A DNA stretch of 64,000 nucleotides from an uncultured Gammaproteobacteria bacterium (GCA_964547465.1 CAZJNI010000004.1:19927-83926), one strand, 5' to 3'; numbered from the stretch's first letter, positions 2,605-54,432 are shown. The notes: generated by a model not told the origin, from the letters alone. Numbers and translations are program-made.

Positions 2605-2735
2605 TTTCCTTATGGTAAATTAAGATTAATTAAAGAGAAATTTCGGAGGCGTACGGTAACGTATGCTTCATTTTGTTGACTCGTAGATATAGAAGGATAT
2701 TGACGAGCAAGACTGCCCGGTCTGGCCATCTACTA

Positions 2736-5700
2736 ATGTCTTTACAACTTGTTGATAATAAAACTATACGTAAATCATGGAATAAAGCACCCACTTTAAC
2801 CCCACAGCTAAACTTAATAAAAATTCAACTTGATTCATATAATTGGTTTCTAACAGAAGGTATAAGAGAAGTTTTGGATGAGATTTCCCCGGTTGAGGAT
2901 TTCACCGGCAAAAATTGGTCTTTGGAACTTGGAGGTTTTTCATTTGGTAAACCCAAATATACTCCGGATTTGGCAAAAGAAAAGGGCGTCACATATGACG
3001 CTCCTTTAAAAATTGAGGCTATTTTAGTTAATAAACAAACTGGCGATAGGGGTAAGCAAGAAGTTTTCTTAGGTGATATTCCCCAGATGACCGAGAAAGG
3101 AACCTTCATTATAAATGGGGTAGAAAGAGTCATTATTAATCAATTGGTCCGCTCTCCCGGAGTATTCTTTTCTGCAACTGATGATCCAATTACCGGAAGA
3201 AGGCTTTATTCAGCAGAGGTTAGACCATATAGAGGTTCCTGGTTGGAATTTTCAATTTCCCGAACCGGTGTTTTAACTGCCAAAATAGACAGAAGAAGAA
3301 AATTTGCGGCTACAACCTTACTTCGAGCTTTAGGCTTTTCAGATTCGGAGTCAATAATGCAGCTATTTAGTGATGTGGATACAACTGAAGATAAATATAT
3401 TGAAACAACTTTGAGTAAAGATCCAACCATAAACTCTGATGAAGCTCTTTTGGAAATTTTTAGAAAAATGCGTCCAGGTGATCCGGTTGTTTTGGATAAT
3501 GCCAAAGCTTTACTTGAAGGAATGTTTTTTAACTCCAGACGTTACAATTTAACAAAAGTTGGCAGGTTTAAAATTAACAAAAGACTGGGATTGGATATTG
3601 CAAATACTTTAGAGAATTGGATTTTGACCAATAATGATATTATTGCCACTTTAAAATATTTAATTAAATTAGCAAATGGTGAAGGAAAAGTGGATGATAT
3701 TGACCATTTAGCAAACAGAAGAGTCAGGTGTGCCGGGGAACTGGTACAGCAAAACGCCTTTAGGATCGGAGTTTTGAGACTTGAGAGAATTATTAAAGAG
3801 CGAATGAGCTTAACAACAGCTGATCAAGAACCCACCCCAGGTGGGTTAATTAATGCCAAACCGGTGATTGCTGCTATTAATGAATTTTTCCGCTCATCTC
3901 AACTATCCAGCATTTTGGATCAGGTAAATCCGCTATCTGAATTAGATCATTTAAGAAGATTATCTGTGATGGGTGCAGGTGGGATAACCCGTGATAGGGC
4001 CAGCTTTTCTGTCCGTGATATTAACCATTCTCAATACGGCAGGATTGATCCTATCCGTTCTCCTGAAGGACAAAATATTGGTTTGGTAACCTATTTAGCC
4101 CTTTATGCCAGAATTAATGAGTACGGATTTTTGGAAACTCCATATAGAAGGGTCGTTTTAGAGCGGGGTAAGCCCAGAATGACTGATGATGTAGTGTATA
4201 TTACAGCTGATGATGAAGAAGATTATCATATAACGGAGGCAACAGTTAACACCGATACAAAAGGTAATATTTTAGACGATCGGGTTCCCATCAGATATCA
4301 GGGAAATTTTTTTGAAGGGGAATCTAAACAGGTCTCTTTGATTGATATCTCACCTCAACAAATCTTTGGAACCTCAGCCGCTTTAATTCCATTTTTAGCA
4401 AATGATGATGCAAACAGGGCTTTAATGGGAACTCAAATGCAGTGCCAGGCAGTGCCTCTTCTTAACCCTTCTGCTCCAATTGTTGGAACCGGGATGGAGC
4501 GAATTGTGGCGGATAATATGGGAAGAGTTGTTAGAGCACCTGAAGATGGGGTGATAGTGGCTGTTGATGGTAAAAAACTTATTCTTGAAGGTAGGAAGGA
4601 TGAGTATAAATATGAGATAAAAAAATTTATCCACTCACCTCAAGGAACTTGTTATTCTCAAAAACCGGCTGTAAAGTTAGGACAAAAGATTAAAAAGGGT
4701 GATCTGTTAGTTGATGGTGCAGCTACCCAAAATGGTGAGTTGGCTTTGGGACAAAATCTTCTGATTGCTTACATGAGTTTTGAAGGATTAGGCTATGAAG
4801 ATGCTATTGTAATTTCAGATAGATTGGTTAGGCAGGATCTTTTAACTTCAATCCATATTGAGGAATATGAGGTTGATGTGGTGGAAACAAAGCTTGGACC
4901 GGAAGAACTAACCCGGGATATTCCAAACGTATCTGAAGATGCATTGAGAAACTTAGATGAGCGGGGAATTGTCAGTATTGGTGCTGAAGTTTTGCCAAAT
5001 GATATTTTGGTTGGCAAAGTTCAGCCTAAAGGTGAGACAGAGTTGACTGCCGAAGAAAGGCTGCTTCGTGCAATTTTTGGAGAAAAAGCCAAAGAAGTAA
5101 GAGACACTTCCTTGAGAGTTCCTCATGGAGAAAGAGGTACTGTAATTGGAGTTCAAATTTTATCCAGGGAAGAGGAAGATGAGCTGGATACAGGAACATT
5201 AATGAGAATTAAGGTTAAAGTTGCCCAAATGAGAAAAGTAACTGAAGGAGATAAGCTGGCAGGAAGGCATGGAAATAAAGGGGTTATCTCTCGAATCGTC
5301 CCGGTATCTGACATGCCGCATTTAGAAGATGGAACACCGGTTGATATTATTATTTCTCCCTTGTCTGTTTTATCCCGTATGAATTTAGGACAACTTCTGG
5401 AAACTCATTGGGGTTTTGCTGCAGAAAAATTGGGTTATAAAATTGCCGCCCCGGTTTTTGAGAAAATGCCGGAGGAAATGTTAATTGCCGAGCTTAAAAA
5501 GGCAGGTTTGCCTACTGATGGAAAAGTCAGACTGATCGATGGGAGAACCGGTCAGGCTTTTGATAACACTATTGTGGTTGGTAGAAATTACATCTTAAAA
5601 CTGATCCATATGGTGGAGGAGAAAATTCATGCCCGCTCCACCGGACCATATTCTTTAGTAACTCAACAGCCTTTGGGCGGAAAAGCACAAATGGGAGGAC

Positions 5701-6077
5701 AAAGATTGGGAGAGATGGAAGTTTGGGCGCTGGAGGCTTATGGTGCTGCACATATTTTGCAGGAGATGCTGACCATAAAATCTGATGATGTGGTGGGAAG
5801 GGCTAAAGCTTTTGAGGCAATTGTTAAGGGAATAGATATTCCACAAGCTTTAATCCCTGAATCATTTAAGGTTTTGGTAAAAGAGTTGCAGGCACTAGGT
5901 TTAAATGTTGAGACACTGGGGGCAAAGATAGTTCAGGCACTGGAAGTCGAGGAAAAGAAAGTTGTTTTGGAAGAAGTGGCAGAGCTGGCGCAGGTTTTGG
6001 ATGCGAAAGAGACAGCAACAGATGAAGAACTTAGCGCTGAAGGAAGCAATTTTGAATTAGTGGAGGGGAATAAATGA
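2736..6077 (+). CDS. rpoB: DNA-directed RNA polymerase subunit beta
   Basis: Full-length RpoB homology (fork, rifampicin-region, catalytic motifs); ORF opens at 2673 but conserved N-terminus (LIKIQLDSYNWF) indicates start at MSLQ ~2736. Confidence 0.95.
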   Translation: MSLQLVDNKTIRKSWNKAPTLTPQLNLIKIQLDSYNWFLTEGIREVLDEISPVEDFTGKNWSLELGGFSFGKPKYTPDLAKEKGVTYDAPLKIEAILVNKQTGDRGKQEVFLGDIPQMTEKGTFIINGVERVIINQLVRSPGVFFSATDDPITGRRLYSAEVRPYRGSWLEFSISRTGVLTAKIDRRRKFAATTLLRALGFSDSESIMQLFSDVDTTEDKYIETTLSKDPTINSDEALLEIFRKMRPGDPVVLDNAKALLEGMFFNSRRYNLTKVGRFKINKRLGLDIANTLENWILTNNDIIATLKYLIKLANGEGKVDDIDHLANRRVRCAGELVQQNAFRIGVLRLERIIKERMSLTTADQEPTPGGLINAKPVIAAINEFFRSSQLSSILDQVNPLSELDHLRRLSVMGAGGITRDRASFSVRDINHSQYGRIDPIRSPEGQNIGLVTYLALYARINEYGFLETPYRRVVLERGKPRMTDDVVYITADDEEDYHITEATVNTDTKGNILDDRVPIRYQGNFFEGESKQVSLIDISPQQIFGTSAALIPFLANDDANRALMGTQMQCQAVPLLNPSAPIVGTGMERIVADNMGRVVRAPEDGVIVAVDGKKLILEGRKDEYKYEIKKFIHSPQGTCYSQKPAVKLGQKIKKGDLLVDGAATQNGELALGQNLLIAYMSFEGLGYEDAIVISDRLVRQDLLTSIHIEEYEVDVVETKLGPEELTRDIPNVSEDALRNLDERGIVSIGAEVLPNDILVGKVQPKGETELTAEERLLRAIFGEKAKEVRDTSLRVPHGERGTVIGVQILSREEEDELDTGTLMRIKVKVAQMRKVTEGDKLAGRHGNKGVISRIVPVSDMPHLEDGTPVDIIISPLSVLSRMNLGQLLETHWGFAAEKLGYKIAAPVFEKMPEEMLIAELKKAGLPTDGKVRLIDGRTGQAFDNTIVVGRNYILKLIHMVEEKIHARSTGPYSLVTQQPLGGKAQMGGQRLGEMEVWALEAYGAAHILQEMLTIKSDDVVGRAKAFEAIVKGIDIPQALIPESFKVLVKELQALGLNVETLGAKIVQALEVEEKKVVLEEVAELAQVLDAKETATDEELSAEGSNFELVEGNK

Positions 6078-15099: not shown

Positions 15100-16284
15100 A
15101 TGGCTGAACAGAAAAAATTTGATAGAAGTAAACCACACGTTAATGTTGGGACCATGGGTCATGTTGACCATGGTAAGACAACTTTAACCGCAGCAATTAC
15201 TAATGTTTTGGCTGCCAAAGGTCTGGCAGAGAAAAGGTCAGTTGATCAAATTGACAATGCTCCAGAGGAAAAAGCCCGCGGTATTACTATTAACATTTCC
15301 CACCAGGAATATGAGACAGAAAAAAGGCATTATGCTCATATAGACATGCCTGGACACGCAGACTATATTAAAAACATGATTACCGGCGCCGCCCAAACAG
15401 ATGGCGCCATTTTAGTGGTTTCTGCTCCTGACGGACCAATGCCACAAACTCGTGAGCATCTTTTGCTTGCCAGACAGGTTGGAGTTCCGGCAATTGTGGT
15501 TTTCTTAAATAAAGTAGACATGGTTGATGATCCGGAATTACTTGATTTGGTGGAAGAAGAAGTTAGAGACTTACTTAAAAAATATGAATACGATCCGCAA
15601 TCTCCCATAATTCGTGGAAGCGCTAAAAAAGCACTTGAAGGTGACGCTGAATCTGTTAAAGCAATTGAAGAATTAATGGCTAAAGTGGATGAGTGGATTC
15701 CAACTCCAGTTCGTGATGTAGAAAAACCATTTTTAATGGCTGTGGAGGATGTTTTCTCAATCAAGGGTCGTGGAACTGTAGTAACTGGCCGTATTGAGCG
15801 AGGTAAGGTTAAAGTTAACGAGGAAATTGAAATTGTGGGTATTAGACCTACAAAGAAGTCTGTTGTAACTGGAATTGAAATGTTTCATAAAATGCTTGAT
15901 GAAGGTCAGGCCGGTGATAATGCCGGAATTTTGCTCCGCGGAATTGAAAAAGATGATGTAGAACGTGGACAAGTTTTAGCCAAACCAGGCTCAATTACCC
16001 CTCATAGCGAGTTTGAAGCAGAAGTTTATATTTTATCCAAAGAAGAAGGGGGACGTCACACTCCATTTTTCAAAGGCTACAGACCACAATTTTATATCAG
16101 GACAACTGATGTGACTGGTGAAGTGACTCTACCTGCAGGCACAGAAATGGCTATGCCGGGAGATACTGTTAAAGTTACCGGAAAATTAATTACACCGGTT
16201 GCTATGGAAGATGGTTTGAGATTTGCCATCCGGGAGGGTGGAAAAACTGTTGGAGCTGGAGTAATAACGAAAATTATTGCTTAG
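15100..16284 (+). CDS. tuf: Elongation factor Tu
   Basis: [22 protein letters not shown] motifs, 394 aa. Confidence 0.95.
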
Positions 16285-16292
16285 CTCAAGTT

Positions 16293-16366
16293 GTCATTGC
16301 GAGCCCGAAGGGCGTGGCAATCTTATTAATAAGATCCTCACGTCGCTTCGCTCCTCAGGATGACAA
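16293..16366. repeat. Palindromic MITE-like element copy A (GTCATTGCGAG...CTCAGGATGAC)
   Basis: Shares termini and central GTGGCAATCTTATT/AATAAGAT core with 6 other copies. Confidence 0.8.
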
Positions 16367-16397
16367 TATAGTATAATTTGCACATTGAAAGGGAAAT

Positions 16398-16706
16398 ATG
16401 CCAAGAGGAAGAATCAGAGTAAAACTGAAAAGTTTTGATCACCGGGTACTAGATCATACCTGTGAATCCCTTTTGGATACAGCCCTTCGAACCGGAGCTA
16501 AAATTGTTGGCCCAGTCCCCTTACCTACAAAAATTGAGCGAATTACAGTTTTAACCTCCCCGCATACAGATAAAGATAGCAGGGAAGCATTTGAAATAAA
16601 AACCCACAAAAGAATGATTGATATAGTTGAGCCTACCCAAAAAACCATAGACTCCCTGATGCATCTTGAAATCCCGGCCGGAGTTGACATAGAAGTAAAA
16701 ATGTAG
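16398..16706 (+). CDS. rpsJ: 30S ribosomal protein S10
   Basis: S10 homology [15 protein letters not shown]..., 102 aa. Confidence 0.9.
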
Positions 16707-16723
16707 TATAAAATGAAGCTAAT

Positions 16724-17287
16724 ATGGTAGAAAAGGGTCCACAGGTTACATGGAAAGAATATAATGAATGGTATCGGGCTACTCGTGATCAAAGGATTGA
16801 AGGGGAGCTAGCATATGGACAATGGCCTGAAGGAACACCACAAATCTTCATTGATTTAGAAAAGAGAATACCTTCTGAAGAAAGGTCAGATTGGCATCTC
16901 TTAGAGCTTTTTGCTGGACGACATCCGCGTAAGTGGAAATTTACAAGACCATCAATTGAAGAAATTTTAGCCAGACCTGCTGATTATGCAGCTATAAAAG
17001 AAGAAGAATCTAGAAAAAGAATAGAGGCAAGGGGAGGAAAATTATTAAAAGAGCAAGTGGAAGAGGTTTTGGATACTTTGACTGATAGAGAAAACAGAGT
17101 AATGAGGTTAAGATTTGGTTTAGAGGATGGTCGCTCTAGAACCTTAAAAGAGGCTGGTATTGAGTTTGGAATGGAAGTTAGAGGACAGGCCTATTCTGGG
17201 GAAAGAATTCGTCAAATAGAGGCTAAAGCTTTGCGGAAACTTAGACGTCCTTCAATAGTACAACCCCTTCAAGACTATTTAGCATAG
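16724..17287 (+). CDS. Sigma-70 region 4 (HTH) domain protein without region 2
   Basis: C-terminus [25 protein letters not shown]...[17 protein letters not shown] nearly identical to RpoD region 4.2; N-terminal ~110 aa unrelated to sigma regions 1-3. Confidence 0.6.
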
Positions 17288-17378
17288 AATTATTCCAGCC
17301 TGCACTTTGCTAATCCCACTTCGGGAGTGTGATTTTCAATTAAAGTGTACGATCGTACAAGTATAAAAACATCCCTTC

Positions 17379-17460
17379 GTCATTGCGAAGCCACGAAGTG
17401 GCTGTGGCAATCTTATTTCAATAAGATTCCCACGACTTACTTCGTAAGTCTCGGGATGAC
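17379..17460. repeat. Palindromic MITE-like element copy B
   Basis: GTCATTGCGAAGCCACGAAGTGGCTGTGGCAATCTTATT...AATAAGATTCCCACGACTTACTTCGTAAGTCTCGGGATGAC. Confidence 0.8.
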
Positions 17461-17746
17461 TAGTTAATATTTTTGTATAGATCCTTGAGGCTTGGATTAA
17501 ATTTACTAATTAATTTTTCTTTTGCTGCTCTATTCCAACTTTTAATCTGTTTTTCTCGCTCAATCGCAGTTTCTGGGTCATAATAAACTTCATAAAATAG
17601 AAGTTCATGAACCTGATATTTTTGGGTGAATCCTTTTACCAGATTATTTTTATGTTGCCAAACTCTTCTTAATAAGTTATTTGTGATTCCTGTGTATAAC
17701 ACTGTTCTAGTGAAGTTACTTAGGATATAGACATAATATTGTTTCA
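17460..17746 (-). CDS. GIY-YIG nuclease family protein (small, UPF0213-like)
   Basis: YYVYILSN...LYTGITNNLLRRVWQH GIY-YIG motif; ORF track extends to 17852 through a MITE copy, true start likely MKQYYVY. Confidence 0.6.
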
Positions 17747-17764
17747 TAAGATTATTATAGATAG

Positions 17765-17840
17765 GATCGCCACGCTTCGCTCGCGATGACGAGATAATAA
17801 GATTCCCACGGTCCGCCTTTGGCGGACCTCGGAATGACAA
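17765..17840. repeat. MITE-like element copy C (rearranged/right-half-rich)
   Basis: CTCGCGATGAC then AATAAGATTCCCACGGTCCGCCTTTGGCGGACCTCGGAATGAC. Confidence 0.7.
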
Positions 17841-17872
17841 TGGTGGGTGCATGCCGGCTATGCATCCTTAGC

Positions 17873-18112
17873 TCATTCAGCCAGATATCCTTTTATTTCT
17901 TCAACTCTTTGCTGAAAGTTTAAAATATCTTCAGGCCAAAGTAGAAATGAATTTCTCCTTCTTTCTCCGTTTTCTCCAACAAAAGCTGATTCTGTTATTT
18001 TTAGATATCTTTTATTATTGGAAGCAACGTAGCAATCAAAGAAGAAAGTTCTTTTACCGCACTTTAACGTAGAAGATTGAACTGGTTTCCTGATCTCTTT
18101 CTGTTTGTCCAT
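17873..18112 (-). CDS. PUR-alpha-like nucleic-acid-binding protein (DUF3276-like)
   Basis: KRTFFFD...NNKRYLKITE resembles PUR repeat/DUF3276 signature; 79 aa. Confidence 0.4.
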   Translation of the reverse strand: MDKQKEIRKPVQSSTLKCGKRTFFFDCYVASNNKRYLKITESAFVGENGERRRNSFLLWPEDILNFQQRVEEIKGYLAE

Positions 18113-18230
18113 GCCTGTATATTCACCCCCTTTCCTAAATCTCTGATTCCATAATTACATTACCCCAATAAAACCCTAATGTCAAGTAGGTCAAAATATA
18201 TCAACCCCGCTGAGCGGGGTCAATTTGCCC

Positions 18231-18259
18231 TTGCATTTGAGCTTAAGTCTTGATACAAT
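18231..18259 (+). promoter_or_regulatory. Sigma70-like promoter TTGCAT-17-TACAAT for the rplC (S10) operon
   Basis: Hexamers at 18231-18236 and 18254-18259. Confidence 0.5.
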
Positions 18260-18353
18260 TGCCTAACATGATAAGGTCAGGTTAATTTTTAACCTTAAAT
18301 TTCAGTAGATCGTGCGTCGGGTTTTTCGATACGACGATTGAAGGCGAGATACT

Positions 18354-18392
18354 GAGTGAGCGCTCCAATAAAATGGGCCTCACTCTTTTTAA
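18354..18392 (+). promoter_or_regulatory. Leader hairpin + T-run (attenuator-like) immediately upstream of rplC start
   Basis: GAGTGAG-N20-CTCACTC followed by TTTTT, 12 nt before rplC ATG; preceded by second hairpin CGTCG-N12-CGACG. Confidence 0.4.
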
Positions 18393-18403
18393 TGGATAAA
18401 TTT

Positions 18404-19210
18404 ATGATAAGTACATTACTCGGTATAAAAAAGAATATGACCAGCACTTATGATTCTCGTGGCAGAAGAGTCGGGGCAACTGTGGTTGAAATTCAGCCAA
18501 ATTTAGTTACCCAAATAAAGACTAAAGAGGGAAAAGACGGCTACGGGGGGATACAGCTCGGGTTTGGAACAAAAAGGTCTGTTAAAAAACCCCAACTCGG
18601 ACTTGGAAAAAAAATAGGGGTAGATCAACCAATCCGCTGGTTTAGGGAAGTTAAAATTGAAGGAGATCCCTCGACTTCGCTCGGGACTATTCAGCCTGGA
18701 CAAGCAATTACACTTGACCAGGTTTTTTCAATAGGAGACGCAATAAAAGTTCAGGGGACTTCCAAAGGTAAGGGTTTTCAAGGCGGAGTCAGAAGACATG
18801 GCTTCCATGGCGGATCAAGAACCCATGGTCAGTCAGATAGAATGAGAGCCCCAGGAGCGATTGGTTCCGGAACAACTCCGGGAAGAGTTTATAAAGGTAA
18901 AAAAATGGCAGGACATATGGGTAATATTTCTGTTAGCACTAAAAATTTGGAAGTTGTAGGACTGGATAAAGAGAAGAATTTATTGGTTATTAAAGGTGCA
19001 GTTCCCGGAGCAACAGGGGGACTTGTAACATTAACAAAACTTGGTCGGGTTAAAGGTTATACTCCTCCGCCGGAAGAAAAGCCGGATGAAGAAGGTGAAG
19101 GGGAAAGCGTAAAGGGTGAAGAAAAGATAGAAGGTCCACAAGAAACAGTAGCACAGCAACCAGCTGAAGAAGTAAAAACTGAGGAGGTAAAGACAGATGC
19201 CAAGAGTTAA
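18404..19210 (+). CDS. rplC: 50S ribosomal protein L3 with ~55 aa acidic/Lys C-terminal extension
   Basis: MISTLLGIKKNMTS... aligns to L3 N-terminus; ORF opens earlier at 18356 in leader; tail PPPEEKPDEEGEGES...EEVKTEEVKTDAKS. Confidence 0.9.
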   Translation: MISTLLGIKKNMTSTYDSRGRRVGATVVEIQPNLVTQIKTKEGKDGYGGIQLGFGTKRSVKKPQLGLGKKIGVDQPIRWFREVKIEGDPSTSLGTIQPGQAITLDQVFSIGDAIKVQGTSKGKGFQGGVRRHGFHGGSRTHGQSDRMRAPGAIGSGTTPGRVYKGKKMAGHMGNISVSTKNLEVVGLDKEKNLLVIKGAVPGATGGLVTLTKLGRVKGYTPPPEEKPDEEGEGESVKGEEKIEGPQETVAQQPAEEVKTEEVKTDAKS

Positions 19211-20006
19211 AAAAAATTCAAATACTACGTCATTGCGAGCCCGCGAAGCGAGGCGTGGCAATCTCATTAAAAAGATTGCTTTGTCGTCAAAGACTCCTCG
19301 CAATGACAGGAGGATTTCTACCCGAGTCAGTTTATCTGTACCAGTGTGTTCATTAGCAGGTAGAGCTGCTGGAAATTTATCACTCCCTAAAGAATTTTTT
19401 GGAGCAGAGGTTAACAAAAAACTTTTAGCTCAAGCGCTAAGAGTTTATACAACTAATCAAAAAAGTTTAACCGGTAATACTAAAACCCGAGGTGAGGTTG
19501 AAGGGTCAACTGCCAAAATTTACAGACAAAAAGGGACAGGTCGGGCCAGGCATGGTGCAATCAGGGCTCCAATATTTGTTGGAGGAGGAATTACTTTTGG
19601 TCCTAAGGAGAGGAAAGTAAGATTAGATCTCCCCCAAAAAATGAAAAAATCTGCGCTAAAGTCTGCGCTGTCCTCTAAAGTAATAGATAAATCTGTAATG
19701 GGATTGTCTGGAATCGAGAAAGCATCAGGTAAGACAAAAGAAATAGCGAAATTAATGTATCAAGTATCAAGTATCAGGTATCAAGGGAAAGATAAAAAAT
19801 CTAAGAAGATTACCAGTACATTAATTGTAACAGGAGATAAGGTAGATAATATACTTCGTGGAGCTAGAAATATTCCAGGGGTTGATATTTTAACAGTTAA
19901 TTTAATTAATGCTTATGAGGTAGCAAGACATGATTTGCTACTTATTACCAAAGAAGCTGTAGATGTTTTAAGCGGAAAGGGTAAAGCGGAAAGGGTAAAG
20001 TTATGA
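19197..20006 (+). CDS. rplD: 50S ribosomal protein L4 (true start possibly in-frame GTG ~19344 downstream of MITE copy)
   Basis: QKGTGRARHGAIRAPIFVGGGITFGP L4 core; first ~50 codons of ORF are encoded by the MITE copy. Confidence 0.85.
   Translation: MPRVKKNSNTTSLRAREARRGNLIKKIALSSKTPRNDRRISTRVSLSVPVCSLAGRAAGNLSLPKEFFGAEVNKKLLAQALRVYTTNQKSLTGNTKTRGEVEGSTAKIYRQKGTGRARHGAIRAPIFVGGGITFGPKERKVRLDLPQKMKKSALKSALSSKVIDKSVMGLSGIEKASGKTKEIAKLMYQVSSIRYQGKDKKSKKITSTLIVTGDKVDNILRGARNIPGVDILTVNLINAYEVARHDLLLITKEAVDVLSGKGKAERVKL
19229..19307. repeat. MITE-like element copy D (inside annotated 5' end of rplD ORF)
   Basis: GTCATTGCGAGCCCGCGAAGCGAGGCGTGGCAATCTCATT...CTCCTCGCAATGAC. Confidence 0.8.
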
Positions 20007-42286: not shown

Positions 42287-42357
42287 CGGGGAGTAGTATA
42301 GTGGTAACACGCCGCGCTGGGGGTGCGGCATCGGGAGTCCGATTCTCCCCTCCCCGA
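42287..42357 (+). tRNA. tRNA-Pro (anticodon GGG), atypical T-loop TCCGATT
   Basis: Hand-folded cloverleaf: acceptor CGGGGAG/CTCCCCG, D-arm AGTGGTA loop, anticodon stem CCGCG/TGCGG loop CTGGGGG, T-stem GGGAG/CTCCC, discriminator A. Confidence 0.55.
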
Positions 42358-44115: not shown

Positions 44116-44200
44116 GTCATTCCGAGCGAATGAAGTTCGCGTGGGAATCTTGATTAATAGGGATTGCCACGTCGCTCGAGGACTCGCTCCTTGCAATGAC
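44116..44200. repeat. MITE-like element copy F (immediately upstream of rny)
   Basis: GTCATTCCGAGCGAATGAAGTTCGCGTGGGAATCTTGATT...CTCGCTCCTTGCAATGAC. Confidence 0.8.
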
Positions 44201-52263: not shown

Positions 52264-53456
52264 TTTGAGTAAAATACCATATTAATGAAATATAAATTGA
52301 TTAAAAATCCAGCTATAGCCAAAGTTAAGAATTTATAAGAAACATTTTTTTTGAATGAATAAAGTAATGCTATAAATAGCATTGGATAAAAATCGATGGC
52401 ATAGCGGTACCCGTATTGCCAGCCGCCATTGGTAAAACTTCCAAAGATAGCAAACATCATAAGTAAAGTTGTAATTCCAGCAAATTTAACCCTTTTATCT
52501 TTCCAGTTACTAAATAAAATCCAGATAAAAATTGAAGAGGTAAATAAGATGCTTAGTCCTGAACCGTCAACTCTTAAATATGGAAATTGCATTATATGTG
52601 TTCCTGGAATAAAAATAGGTTCAGGCATTTTCAAGAACATAGTATAAAGATTTGCCGGAATATGAATTAAACTCCACACACCCAACGTCCTATTGGCAAC
52701 AACTGGTCCACTATTCCATTCCTGCATAGAATAACCAGTTTCTAAAAAATTCCCAAATCGAGCAGAATTATAAATTCCTATTAAGATAAGAGATATAATT
52801 ATAGGTAAAAGTAATAAAGTGAGGTTTTTAAATTTTATTTTTTTAGATAAATCGCAGTAGGATAAGTTTAGTATAAAAAATATTACTGTAAAGATTAAGG
52901 AGATCCTTGTGATGAAAGCTAGCGCTAGATAGATACCGATAATTAGCCATGATCTATTAAAAAAATAAGCCTCTAGACTTAAAAGAGTTAGGGTAAAACC
53001 AACAATTTGTGCAAAGTACCAGGACCATGGTATTAAAGCAATCCCTAAGTATGCAGTAGAAAATAAAATTGCAAAACTTATTATAATAGATTTAGTTAAA
53101 TTACCACTTATTTTTTTAGCAATTCTGATAAGCAATAATACATTCAGTAGGTTTAAAAAAAATAACAAATATCCCTGTCTTATATGATCACCAAATATAT
53201 AAACAAACGGCATGAGTAAAATTGCAGGAAAAGGACCCAATGGCCAGTATTGACGATTTTTGTATAAGGCAGCATCAAAAGTATTTGAGAGAAAATAAAG
53301 CTTGCCTTGAAGGAAAGAAGAAGCGAGGCTTACAAATTGTTCTTGTTGGGGTGAAGTAAAAAGGTCGTAATAAACAAATAATAGAACCCCCAAAATACAG
53401 AAGAATAATATTATAATTCTCTTCATGAATAAAGTATTAGTTATTTTAGGTCCCAC
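52260..53456 (-). CDS. Polytopic membrane protein, GT-C-like glycosyltransferase (paralog)
   Basis: SLASSFLQGKLYF...QYWPLGPFPAILLMPFVYIFG parallels upstream paralog; 5' end overlaps miaA 5' end divergently. Confidence 0.4.
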   Translation of the reverse strand: MGPKITNTLFMKRIIILFFCILGVLLFVYYDLFTSPQQEQFVSLASSFLQGKLYFLSNTFDAALYKNRQYWPLGPFPAILLMPFVYIFGDHIRQGYLLFFLNLLNVLLLIRIAKKISGNLTKSIIISFAILFSTAYLGIALIPWSWYFAQIVGFTLTLLSLEAYFFNRSWLIIGIYLALAFITRISLIFTVIFFILNLSYCDLSKKIKFKNLTLLLLPIIISLILIGIYNSARFGNFLETGYSMQEWNSGPVVANRTLGVWSLIHIPANLYTMFLKMPEPIFIPGTHIMQFPYLRVDGSGLSILFTSSIFIWILFSNWKDKRVKFAGITTLLMMFAIFGSFTNGGWQYGYRYAIDFYPMLFIALLYSFKKNVSYKFLTLAIAGFLINLYFINMVFYSK

Positions 53457-54432
53457 TTCAACAGGGAAAACAGACTTGGCATTAACTTTGGCTAAAAAAT
53501 TTAATGGGGAGTTAGTATCGTGTGATTCCAGACAAGTATATGTGGGACTTGATATAGGGACCGGGAAGATGCCTGGAGTAGATTTAAGATTTAAGAATAA
53601 GGATTTAAGAATAAAAAAGGGAAATAATTGGTGGGAAATAGGTGGAATAAAAATCTGGATGTATGATGTAATATCCCCAAAAAGGCAGTATACAGTTTTT
53701 GATTATGTAAAAGATGCAAATAAGGCAATAGATAAGATTATAAAAAAAGGAAAGCAACCTATTATAGTTGGGGGAACTGGTTTGTATCTGAAGGGGTTGC
53801 TATATGGTTTTCCTAATTTAGGAATTCCGGTAGATAAAAAGTTAAGAAATAACTTAGAAGAGTTAACTTTAGAAGAACTTCAAAAAAACCTTCAAGGATT
53901 TTCTATTCAAAGATGGGAAAAGATGAATAGTTCAGATAGGCAAAATCCCAGAAGATTAGTTAGGGCGATAGAGCTAACTATTTCGTCATTGCGAGGAGCA
54001 AGGCGACGAAGCAATCCATTAAACATATTGCCACGGCCCTTCGGGCCTCGCAATGACATATTAAAAATTGGATTAACTACCTCAAGGGAGATTTTATACA
54101 AAAGAATTGATGAAAGAGTAGTATCTAGAATAAATGAAGGAATGATTGATGAGGCAATAAGACTATATAAAGATGGATTAAGTCTGAAAAGAATGAGACA
54201 GTTAGGGCTTGAGTATGGAGTAATGGCGGATTTTCTGGAAATCAAAATAAGCAGAGATCAATTAATTGAAACTCTGAAGGTAAAAATTCATCACTTTGCC
54301 AAACGTCAAGAAACATGGTTTAAAAAAGAAAAAGATATTAATTGGTTTGATATAGCTAAAAAAAATTATATAAATAAAGTGGAAAATTTGGTGGCTAAAT
54401 GGTATTATCAGGCAAATGCCACGCAAGATTGA
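53425..54432 (+). CDS. miaA: tRNA dimethylallyltransferase with in-frame MITE-derived insertion
   Basis: P-loop GPTSTGKTDLAL, DSRQVY motif; 335 aa. Confidence 0.85.
   Translation: MNKVLVILGPTSTGKTDLALTLAKKFNGELVSCDSRQVYVGLDIGTGKMPGVDLRFKNKDLRIKKGNNWWEIGGIKIWMYDVISPKRQYTVFDYVKDANKAIDKIIKKGKQPIIVGGTGLYLKGLLYGFPNLGIPVDKKLRNNLEELTLEELQKNLQGFSIQRWEKMNSSDRQNPRRLVRAIELTISSLRGARRRSNPLNILPRPFGPRNDILKIGLTTSREILYKRIDERVVSRINEGMIDEAIRLYKDGLSLKRMRQLGLEYGVMADFLEIKISRDQLIETLKVKIHHFAKRQETWFKKEKDINWFDIAKKNYINKVENLVAKWYYQANATQD
53985..54057. repeat. MITE-like element copy G located in-frame inside miaA
   Basis: GTCATTGCGAGGAGCAAGGCGACGAAGCAATCCATT...GCCACGGCCCTTCGGGCCTCGCAATGAC. Confidence 0.8.

Follow-up and report, generated by a model that had tools for sequence, protein, structure and literature searches.

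Comparison of the window, the 64,000-nucleotide stretch of DNA analysed here, with related loci indicated that the junction between rpsJ and rplC is an operon boundary of variable content. We consider it rather probable that the three non-ribosomal genes in the 1.7 kb separating rpsJ from rplC are independent items and not one island: a gene for an RpoD region 4-like protein (hereafter sigma-tail), an element built around a GIY-YIG nuclease gene and a PUR-repeat gene. The genes of the junction are as follows.

16398-16706, plus strand: rpsJ, ribosomal protein S10, alias NusE (Pfam Ribosomal_S10, E 1.6e-35).
16724-17287, plus strand: sigma-tail protein, 187 aa (Pfam Sigma70_r4, PF04545, E 7.7e-12, residues 115-174).
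17460-17747, minus strand: predicted GIY-YIG nuclease, 95 aa, single domain, UPF0213/COG2827 type (Pfam GIY-YIG, E 1.1e-16).
17873-18112, minus strand: DUF3276 (PUR-repeat) protein, 79 aa (Pfam, E 4.5e-9).
18404-19210, plus strand: rplC, ribosomal protein L3 (Pfam Ribosomal_L3).

The three domain assignments, proposed in an earlier note on this DNA, were borne out by Pfam, with 45 bits against a cut-off of 24.1 for Sigma70_r4, 36.9 bits against 23.1 for DUF3276 and coverage of profile positions 1-76 of 78 for GIY-YIG. The S10 protein shares 90-96% identity with S10 of Candidatus Daviesbacteria genomes, and by this sequence measure the window lineage is Candidatus Daviesbacteria (Microgenomates, CPR). 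The rpsJ-rplC gap measured 191-3977 nt, with a median of about 790 nt, in 36 Daviesbacteria-type species loci and 3-250 nt in loci from outside the group. The split, which the earlier note had called unusual, is rare outside the Daviesbacteria; within them it is found everywhere and its cargo differs by species, comprising sigma-tail genes, DUF3276, GIY-YIG, toxin-antitoxin pairs, DUF2283 or an Hsp70-like gene. Every Daviesbacteria locus combines the split with an rplC promoter and leader, even where the gap is only about 190 nt and free of genes. On this comparative sequence basis, the Daviesbacteria S10 operon is predicted to be cut between rpsJ and rplC, with rpsJ going with tuf and rplC standing under its own promoter. 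In the literature search, a CPR ribosome paper was found not to discuss this split in gene order.

The earlier note had read the gap differently, as a single mobile accessory island of 1.6 kb, bounded by MITE copies, that had been inserted between rpsJ and rplC with all three genes. The closeness of the repeats to the genes, the GIY-YIG gene in the gap and the rarity of the split beyond the Daviesbacteria lineage speak for such an island; nevertheless, the comparative data largely refute it and we regard it as very improbable. Repeat A lies upstream of rpsJ, repeats B and C flank the GIY-YIG gene only and repeat D lies beyond rplC, so the gap as a whole is not repeat-bounded; copy C, taken for a full repeat, actually consists of two tandem half-modules. 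The sigma-tail, GIY-YIG and DUF3276 genes were each found independently of the others in relatives, and the gene-free gaps described above have the split, promoter and leader without any insert. The GC profile showed no deviation across the gap and no island signature, no integrase-like ORF was present among the gap ORFs and the sole tRNA of the window is at 42287. Hence none of the marks of a genomic island was found at this locus, be it terminal repeats, unusual composition, an integrase, a tRNA as target or joint inheritance. Conservation of the genes at the site, which the earlier note had named as evidence against its own proposal, was found in part: the sigma-tail gene directly follows rpsJ in homologues 44-64% identical and the DUF3276 gene recurs in seven or eight other species. 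Of the suggested mobility, the part that stands concerns the GIY-YIG gene and the repeats, which look mobile, but not the whole gap as one mobile island.

The restart of the rplC operon from its own promoter and an attenuator-like leader, also put forward in the earlier note, was upheld by the conservation of both elements in relatives.

18231-18259, plus strand: rplC operon promoter read from the sequence, TTGCAT (18231-18236), 17 nt, TACAAT (18254-18259).
18300-18391, plus strand: conserved structured rplC leader with an intrinsic terminator at its end (GAGTGAG..CTCACTCTTTTT).

About 35 Daviesbacteria loci share both the pattern TTGCAWTT..GTTAMAAT ahead of rplC and the leader, among them loci whose gap is some 190-270 nt long. 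In the leader, 94% of the alignment cells were paired as compared with at most 50% with slid partners, and eight pairs carried compensatory changes. The covariance model found held-out copies in six further Daviesbacteria loci and one copy in the window, and the matches of the search came from Daviesbacteria loci only. Conservation, covariation and an intrinsic terminator in the 5' UTR of a ribosomal-protein operon are structural features of an autoregulatory leader, and the rplC leader is accordingly described here as attenuator- or riboregulator-like. In E. coli, the S10 operon leader is the site of L4-mediated attenuation. Both are structured 5' leaders with an intrinsic terminator ahead of rplC-rplD and the genes that follow, but the Daviesbacteria leader is located after rpsJ and not before it, differs in sequence and structure and gave no match in Rfam 15, either at E<=10 (positions 16250-19350) or at the gathering score (whole window).

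The DUF3276 gene, which lies shortly before the rplC promoter and is encoded on the other strand, appears from its distribution to be a long-term resident. The gene has the same position and strand in loci L090 (85% identity), L091, L096, L097, L103, L105, L106 and L130. A profile built from eight orthologues matched PDB entries 3nm7 (E 3e-5) and 3n8b (E 4e-4), which we take to be bacterial Pur-alpha-like PUR-repeat proteins of Borrelia. The DUF3276 protein resembles these chains as a small, single-repeat nucleic-acid-binding protein, whereas the fixed position of its gene, divergent from the rplC promoter, sets it apart. One further site may belong to this gene.

18195-18223, minus strand: promoter-like TTGACC-17-TATATT (with TG) facing the DUF3276 gene, a consensus match only.

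This site overlaps an 11-bp hairpin (18200-18224).

At the rpsJ end of the gap, two putative signals frame the sigma-tail gene.

16684-16712, plus strand: possible internal promoter of the sigma-tail gene, TTGACA-17-TATAAA, read from the sequence.
17312-17336, plus strand: probable terminator, a hairpin with a U-run (AATCCCACTTCGGGAGTGTGATTTT), closing the tuf-rpsJ-sigma-tail unit.

The sigma-tail ATG is placed 17 nt past the rpsJ stop codon, as it is in L001, L085 and L089, which makes co-transcription with tuf-rpsJ probable. A second source of transcription may be the TTGACA-17-TATAAA site at the end of rpsJ, whose TTGACA forms the V-D-I codons of S10 and which ends 11 nt before the ATG. The two hexamers co-occur in the window, L001, L085 and L090; the promoter scan passed over the site since its -10 hexamer ends in A. 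The terminator hairpin is predicted to fold weakly (-13 kcal/mol, z -1.55), and in L085 the homologous gene is followed by the very same sequence.

The RpoD similarity lies mainly in the C-terminal half of the sigma-tail protein. Residues 91-186 matched positions 281-369 of the 370-position RpoD profile of NCBIfam (E 1.4e-28), all NCBIfam matches lay within residues 85-187, and Pfam gave neither a Sigma70_r2 hit at E<=0.1 nor a region 3 hit. We divide the protein into a family-specific helical N-domain (residues 1 to about 104) and an RpoD-like region 4.1/4.2 (about 105-187). In the AF2 model region 4 reached pLDDT values above 90 except for one block of lower confidence, which coincides with a 7-aa insertion (MEVRGQA) that interrupts the turn of the helix-turn-helix and that the L103 ORF shares. 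The best local Foldseek match was SigA domain 4 (TM 0.78, 67% identity). The region 4 similarity reported in the earlier note thus survived the profile and structure searches. Its description of a protein lacking regions 2 and 3 agrees with the Pfam result, but must be softened for region 3, into which an alignment anchored on region 4 runs with moderate confidence. Like region 4 of RpoD/SigA (PF04545), the segment from about 105 to 187 aligns with the last 90 or so RpoD residues at up to 65-68% identity, keeps the motif VLxLRFGLxDGRxRTL together with a second 13-residue motif and has a predicted fold that superposes on SigA domain 4. The recognition residues of RpoD (ERIRQ) are retained in the window protein and not in most of its relatives. 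The protein differs from RpoD/SigA by its N-terminal domain, which is unrelated or only remotely related, by the absence of regions 1 and 2, and hence of -10 binding and DNA melting, and by the insertion in the window copy or, in the rest of the family, another recognition helix (RSxRTVxRIE).

The family was defined here by the pattern W..[YF]..W ... G.WPEGTP..F.DL..K.T.EERLL..IFG..P..EEI..R followed by Sigma70_r4, mostly in proteins of 143-216 aa, and alignments placed the window protein within this definition. It is rare: the N-domain profile retrieved only nine proteins among 5.8 billion, and the exhaustive search 40 cluster representatives among 1.84 billion, of which one was spurious, leaving about 39. 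The match to the 7361-aa protein P0125 was rejected as an artefact of its repeated EEEILAQ stretch. The 25 representatives inspected have the same layout of N-domain and region 4, most of them within 143-216 aa. Directly after rpsJ, the sigma-tail gene was found in L001-L004, L085, L086 and L089, amounting to at least five distinct loci, and the homologues keep this position with different downstream cargo or none. Shorter Sigma70_r4 ORFs occupy the same slot in other Daviesbacteria (L095, L100, L103), and three family members (L087, L088, L170) lie away from rpsJ. Among the 36 species-representative loci, however, only three or four have a Sigma70_r4 ORF after rpsJ and the N-domain family is present in none of these; the distribution is patchy, and the designation of conserved resident is therefore valid for a sub-lineage only. 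No contig matched in an exact-sequence look-up of the 187-aa protein, nor did the first scan of genome contigs with the family alignment give a match. In the metagenome scan, matches to ordinary RpoD crowded out all others, one of the search patterns having been taken from region 4, and the only near-full-length match, L049, proved to be a normal rpoD. Three further ideas on the protein were discarded: for a phage origin, the phage-database matches cover residues 91-186 only and the listed records carry no annotation; for membership of a defence system, there was only generic region 4 similarity to MzaA; and for an N-domain derived from a degenerate second copy of region 4, there was a single hhalign alignment with a probability of 1%. 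The literature search found nothing on stand-alone region 4 proteins.

The sigma-tail protein has no region 2 and therefore is no sigma factor and cannot open promoters; with region 4 recognised and region 2 missing, its sequence argues that it is not a functional initiation factor. Split sigma factors are known from B. subtilis (SigO-RsoA) and phage T4 (gp55/gp33), and the sigma-tail could likewise supply region 4, perhaps with a degenerate region 3, to a separate partner bearing region 2. The nearly canonical region 4, the extension of the anchored alignment into RpoD region 3 and a Foldseek alignment of about 195 columns to whole SigA chains are in keeping with such a division. Nonetheless, we think it unlikely: tblastn with full RpoD detected no region 2 in the 64-kb window, no region-2 coding sequence was found in the related loci and the family is irregularly distributed even between closely related species. 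Alternatively, the ORF might be a decaying, functionless fragment of a duplicated rpoD, as the limitation of the RpoD match to the C-terminal 95 residues and two insertions of the window copy that are missing in relatives would allow. This is highly unlikely given that homologues only 33-64% identical maintain an open frame, the two-part layout and for the most part a length of 143-216 aa, and that conserved motifs are present in both halves, the structure is confidently predicted and the distance to rpsJ is conserved. We rather envisage the sigma-tail as a small regulator that probably acts via the beta-flap or via DNA. Its region 4 would sit on the tip of the RNA polymerase beta-flap and there compete with NusA or the primary sigma factor; alternatively, its helix-turn-helix would bind -35-like DNA. 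The 7-aa insertion could abolish DNA binding by the window copy. The window also contains an ORF of 1134 aa (2673-6077) that is probably rpoB, the gene of the beta subunit. The interface of region 4 and the beta-flap is targeted by T4 gp33, AsiA, Rsd, phage G1 gp67 and WhiB-type factors. As proposed for the sigma-tail, these are small proteins controlling initiation through that contact, but none of them is a copy of region 4. Some proteins of this interface appear as partners in the PDB matches of the sigma-tail.

The GIY-YIG protein starts at the methionine of MKQYYVY and not at the first ATG of the ORF, and a TATAAT box precedes the ATG by 7 nt. The residues YVYIL...LYTGIT..RRV...EREKQIK can be read in its sequence and include the Y..Y(T/I)G, Arg and Glu positions, and the protein matched PDB 1ZG2 (UPF0213 protein BH0048) with an E of 0.005. 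More than 2283 homologues were found at E<=1e-10, mostly of 97 aa, those listed being mostly 87-131 aa. The protein shares the catalytic fold family with UPF0213/COG2827 (1ZG2) and with homing endonucleases such as T4 Seg and I-TevI and, as theirs do, its gene invades spacers of conserved operons (dnaK-dnaJ, rpsJ-rplC). In contrast to the homing endonucleases, which carry a separate DNA-binding domain, the 95-aa protein is a bare catalytic domain in which no such second domain was found.

Repeats with a GTCAT tag surround this gene. Allowing up to one mismatch, GTCATTGCGAR occurs 10 times in the window against 1.05 expected, and the modules form five pairs with two extra single modules.

16293-16364, unstranded: module pair A, MITE-like, in the tuf-rpsJ spacer (fold -34.5 kcal/mol, z -3.3).
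17379-17460, unstranded: module pair B (fold -39.8 kcal/mol, z -7.3).
17765-17838, minus strand: two tandem modules, C2 (17765-17790) and C1 (17801-17838), upstream of the GIY-YIG start.
19229-19307, unstranded: module pair D, in frame in the Lys-rich N-terminal extension of rplD (ORF from MPRVKK at 19197).
44116-44200 and 53985-54057: further module pairs.

Pair A lies just upstream of a conserved TATAAT..GCACATTGAAAGG before rpsJ, by inspection a -10-like box and Shine-Dalgarno region. The right module of B, at 17425-17460 on the minus strand, shares one base with the stop codon of the GIY-YIG gene (TA/GTCATCCCGAG). Stem flanks of the C modules carry compensatory changes (ATTCC/GGAAT and ATCGC/GCGAT versus ATTGC/GCAAT). 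GTCAT modules were found at the ends of all 11 GIY-YIG genes examined, including those at unrelated sites (dnaK-dnaJ), and of the 53 motif hits counted over 476 kb, 23 lie in the 3.3 kb adjoining these GIY-YIG genes, which is an enrichment of about 110-fold. The module begins at the GIY-YIG stop codon or up to 6 nt after it, and in two loci the overlap is of one base. From these sequence comparisons, the GIY-YIG unit is delimited as about 380 bp consisting of a hairpin module, the 95-aa nuclease gene and an inverted hairpin module, and the repeats belong to the GIY-YIG gene. Compared with L171 and L174, which have a simple inverted pair, the arrangement in the window is more elaborate: two direct modules, the gene and then a full pair.

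The pairs without a gene look like MITEs of the GIY-YIG unit, sharing with it the same inverted GTCAT..AATC modules as terminal repeats and being present in multiple copies. In the between-species comparison, the tuf-rpsJ spacer was filled in four (the window, L096, L099 and L102) and empty in four (L104, L108, L101 and L001). The module flanks are mostly T/GTCAT...ATGAC/A, with no evident target-site duplication. The mobility of the unit and its modules is something we infer from comparative anatomy alone. A location in intergenic spacers of highly expressed operons (tuf-rpsJ), stable folds and terminator-like scores of some copies would suit REP-like host elements that serve as terminators or mRNA stabilisers and lie near GIY-YIG genes by coincidence. 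We find this explanation improbable in the face of the module enrichment at GIY-YIG gene ends, the conserved junction of module and stop codon and the same bracket at unrelated loci. Moreover, two module pairs lie in frame inside coding regions, those of rplD and miaA, positions at which they are unlikely to act as terminators.

It is possible, although less likely than not, that the GIY-YIG gene and its hairpin MITEs constitute an undescribed bacterial selfish element of about 380 bp, mobilised or homing, with a bare nuclease as its sole protein and with gene-less pairs spread across Microgenomates, even in frame within the essential genes rplD and miaA. The nuclease would recognise or cleave the module hairpin or cruciform. 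It would then either mobilise the modules or, following cruciform cleavage, the GIY-YIG gene would be copied by repair into existing module pairs and thus home. To our knowledge, GIY-YIG enzymes are known only as nucleases and no joining activity has been described for them. The closest parallel is the REPIN-RAYT system, in which REP doublets are associated with a single-copy HUH tyrosine transposase (PMC3116915, PMC3337134). In common with it, the modules are short GC-rich hairpins with a conserved 5' terminal tag, arranged as inverted doublets in intergenic DNA; these hairpins also border a small nuclease gene, and gene copies are few and gene-less doublets many. The gene here, however, encodes a GIY-YIG protein of 95-97 aa and not an HUH/Y1 transposase, it sits inside the doublet, and the tag is GTCAT in place of GTAG or CGTC. 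A second parallel is offered by the Rickettsia palindromic elements, reportedly described by Ogata and colleagues in 2000, in that in-frame palindromes are tolerated in protein-coding genes, here rplD and miaA. The two differ in lineage, in sequence and in the GIY-YIG gene linked to the modules, and we know of no enzyme linked to the Rickettsia elements. Our literature searches found no link between UPF0213/COG2827 proteins and repeats, nothing on GIY-YIG genes with REP-like repeats or on bacterial GIY-YIG transposons and nothing on palindromic elements of CPR.

A junction that is highly conserved in bacteria, rpsJ-rplC, thus appears to have turned into an operon boundary in one CPR lineage, and with its own promoter and riboregulator-like leader it would provide a natural case of the re-wiring of a ribosomal-protein operon. 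The sigma-tail family offers a rare natural case of an RpoD region 4 that stands alone and is probably co-expressed with NusE and EF-Tu. Should the protein dock to the beta-flap or to -35-like DNA, it would represent host-encoded modulation of initiation in organisms where the regulatory repertoire appears small, and would be a ready-made probe of the flap interface. The pairing of GIY-YIG gene and hairpins, if the proposed reading is true, could represent a new class of minimal element that moves or homes, and would account for many of the short breaks between contigs and of the spurious SLRG..PRND peptides seen in CPR assemblies.

The S10 protein encoded in the window is 90-96% identical to that of Candidatus Daviesbacteria genomes (Microgenomates, CPR). 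Synteny comparison of 80 genome loci and metagenome contigs (L numbers), addressing whether rpsJ and rplC are contiguous elsewhere, revealed a gap of 3-250 nt between the two genes in loci outside the Daviesbacteria lineage. Within it, represented by 36 Daviesbacteria-type species loci, the gap spans 191-3977 nt with a median of about 790. The features of the window in and around this gap are as follows.

15100-16284, plus strand, tuf
16293-16364, no strand, palindromic repeat A
16398-16706, plus strand, rpsJ
16724-17287, plus strand, 187-aa ORF (sigma-tail), Pfam Sigma70_r4
17379-17460, no strand, repeat B
17460-17747, minus strand, GIY-YIG gene, Pfam GIY-YIG
17765-17838, minus strand, repeat C, two tandem half-repeats
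17873-18112, minus strand, 79-aa ORF, Pfam DUF3276
18404-19210, plus strand, rplC

Pfam bears out the three domain assignments of the earlier note: Sigma70_r4 is the sole match in the 187-aa protein (E 7.7e-12, residues 115-174), the gene at 17460-17747 matches GIY-YIG (E 1.1e-16) and the 79-aa ORF matches DUF3276 (E 4.5e-9). That three non-ribosomal genes occupy the gap also stands; that repeats bound them does not. Nor is their interpretation as a single island supported, since gap content varies by species among Daviesbacteria-type loci (sigma region 4 ORFs, DUF3276, GIY-YIG, toxin-antitoxin pairs, DUF2283, an Hsp70-like gene, an SPFH protein) and a promoter (TTGCAWTT, N, GTTAMAAT) and a conserved leader upstream of rplC are retained even in the shortest gaps. 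This makes the rpsJ-rplC split an ancestral trait of the lineage, and the gap reads as a boundary of two transcription units where accessory genes collect and not as a recent insertion. In two more distant Daviesbacteria-type genomes the gap is filled by an Hsp70/actin-like ATPase gene of ~480 aa (L124 5449-6891, L128 4200-5636).

The rplC leader lies at 18300-18391 of the window and upstream of rplC also in L001, L089-L133 and L143. In an alignment of 31 leaders, RNAalifold predicted 18 pairs, and eight of these show compensatory changes. The structure taken from a single-sequence fold was paired in 94% of cells, versus 24-50% with partners slid, and 8 pairs were changed on both sides; the observed values were reached by none of 500 shuffles. 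The leader ends in an intrinsic terminator, GAGTGAG-hairpin-CTCACTCTTTTT. Conserved structure, covariation and terminator together support its earlier description as attenuator-like. In addition, column 12 of the alignment shows covariation both with column 56 and with column 77, as would be expected of a switch between two structures, and an alternative pairing is possible. A covariance model recovered six leaders that had been held out, each of them from a Daviesbacteria locus, and one copy in the window, with no match in the other CPR orders sampled; Rfam gave no match at E<=10. We consider it a candidate new ribosomal-protein leader, Daviesbacteria-specific among the sampled loci.

The repeats are built from a module, GTCAT[TC][GC]CGA followed by a GC-rich hairpin whose loop is usually GAA and then G[TG]GG[CG]AATC, the stem flanks of which show compensatory changes (ATTGC/GCAAT, ATTCC/GGAAT, ATCGC/GCGAT). 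The window contains 10 occurrences of the motif, against a chance expectation of 1.05. Each "MITE" consists of two inverted modules around a short AT-rich spacer, and the folding energies of pairs A and B are -34 to -40 kcal/mol (z -3.3 to -7.3). Modules were found at the ends of 11/11 GIY-YIG genes examined, eight in rpsJ-rplC gaps and three at unrelated sites (a deoC-like gene beside an FAD-oxidase gene, between unknown genes, and dnaK|dnaJ, one of the other conserved spacers that such bracketed units occupy). The 3.3 kb adjoining these 11 genes account for 23 of the 53 motif hits found in 476 kb, an enrichment of about 110-fold. Three module-bracketed units are:

L175, 2395-2824
L171, 2458-2831
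L174, 2445-2852

In the simplest of them (L171, L174), a module, 17-20 nt, the gene, its stop and an inverted module make up about 380 bp in total, and a -10-like box lies 7-10 nt before the GIY-YIG ATG, within the 17-20 nt. The same-strand module 3' of the gene starts at the stop codon or up to 6 nt beyond, with a one-base overlap in the window and L090, and the inverted module of the simplest units likewise abuts the stop. We accordingly assign the repeats to the GIY-YIG gene. Four species have the tuf-rpsJ spacer filled and four have it empty; no target-site duplication was evident. The GIY-YIG protein consists of nothing but a catalytic domain, of UPF0213 type (match to 1ZG2), and has >2283 homologues at E<=1e-10, mostly of 97 aa; those with a source name are from Microgenomates, and many occupy contigs of about 1 kb, which would be expected of an element that breaks assemblies. 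We found no description of a GIY-YIG/hairpin-repeat association in the literature and the unit, the mechanism of which we infer, appears undescribed before. Its closest analogue is the REPIN-RAYT system, although the enzyme class differs.

Two module pairs lie in frame within genes. Pair D (19229-19307) falls in the N-terminal, Lys-rich extension of rplD (ribosomal protein L4), the ORF of which opens at 19197 with MPRVKK, a start common to all relatives; L4 of Daviesbacteria generally begins MP[RV]VKK, overlapping the rplC end, and comparable inserts occur in rplD of L090, L116, L101 and L097. Pair F (53985-54057) is inside miaA (53425-54432) and encodes the peptide ISSLRGARRRSNPLNILPRPFGPRNDI; the IPPT domain and the alignment to a solved MiaA structure continue straight across it.

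The DUF3276 gene keeps its place, just upstream of the rplC promoter, and its strand in eight other species (54-85% identity), and is faced by a promoter-like site. PDB 3nm7 and 3n8b, which we take to be Borrelia Pur-alpha-like proteins, were matched by a profile built from eight orthologues, and for this reason the label "PUR-like" holds. Several species conserve a short palindrome, GCATGCCGGC(CGGC), in the stretch that separates the GIY-YIG unit from the DUF3276 stop (window 17838-17872; downstream of DUF3276 in L096 and L130); it could be a DUF3276 terminator or an insertion target.

In the sigma-tail protein, residues 91-186 match the last ~90 RpoD profile positions (E 1.4e-28), at a score far below full-length cut-offs. 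The AlphaFold model has a mean pLDDT of 81, and >90 over region 4 save one block (70) at an insertion in the HTH turn; its closest local structural match is domain 4 of S. aureus SigA (TM 0.78, 67% identity), so that the proposed region-4 similarity is confirmed by profile and structure alike. Neither Pfam nor RpoD profiles gave a region 2 match. A helical domain specific to the family makes up the N-terminal ~104 residues, and its profile found just 9 proteins among 5.8 billion and 40 cluster representatives, one an artefact, among 1.84 billion. The layout of N-domain, linker and region 4 recurs in 25/25 representatives inspected, most of them 143-216 aa, and the family appears undescribed before. 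The N-domain alone had no match to RpoD; a region-4-anchored profile alignment continues, at moderate confidence, into RpoD region 3.0/3.1, and the domain is possibly a degenerate region 3. Some members of 316-336 aa (P0002, P0004 from L086, P0130; proteins from the family searches) carry an extra ~150-aa domain with the motif ..GREIVTI.DDKWEGGYQALLLDVDGKWH..EYARL.DP.A.., N-terminal in P0002 and P0004 and apparently C-terminal in P0130, a variable placement that suggests domain shuffling.

The family gene begins 13-19 nt past the rpsJ stop in five distinct loci (window, L001-4, L085, L086, L089). It is followed by an 85-aa ORF, DUF2283 and a 99-aa ORF in L001, by GIY-YIG in L085 and by nothing in L089. 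Shorter ORFs passing the Sigma70_r4 cut-off occupy the same slot in three other species (L095, L100, L103), and an L117 ORF matches weakly. The distribution is patchy, with any region-4 ORF after rpsJ in only 3-4 of 36 species-representative loci. Three members lie elsewhere (L087, L088, L170); the L088 and L170 genes share a promoter-like upstream sequence and adjoin toxin-antitoxin genes, upstream in L088 (sequence reading) and as HicA/HicB downstream in L170. Toxin-antitoxin-like pairs that adjoin sigma-tail genes or occupy the rpsJ-rplC gap (L088 1-590, L170 1052-1557, L001 6529-7028, L129 3156-3816) comprise Phd/RelE-like, HicA/HicB, an 85-aa ORF with DUF2283 and a PIN/RHH-looking pair (by eye only); accessory or defence hot spots have neighbourhoods of this kind. 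In the window, TTGACA (the V-D-I codons of S10), 17 nt and TATAAA (16684-16712) lie in the last rpsJ codons, 11 nt before the sigma-tail ATG; the two boxes co-occur in four loci with an ORF directly after rpsJ, three of these ORFs being family members, and may form an internal promoter whose mRNA would be almost leaderless. GIY-YIG genes likewise have their -10-like box 7-10 nt ahead of the start codon. A hairpin with a U-run 3' of the gene, identical in L085, is thermodynamically weak.

Lacking region 2, the sigma-tail protein is unable to function as a sigma factor. Region 4 of sigma-70 binds -35 DNA in isolation, and the tip helix of the beta-flap is capped by region 4. Given these properties and the missing region 2, the sigma-tail protein would most likely either compete with the primary sigma factor or NusA for the beta-flap or bind -35-like DNA. 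Most members have the recognition helix RSxRTVxRIE, equal in length to VTRERIRQIE of RpoD; the window copy carries a 7-aa insertion, MEVRGQA, in the HTH turn, followed by RpoD-like sequence, and shares this insertion with the region-4-only ORF of L103. The variability of the helix across the family would fit either diversified DNA targets or an absence of DNA constraint. Beyond generic region-4 similarity, we found no relationship of the protein to phages or defence systems. The locus is a lineage-specific operon boundary with three independent residents.
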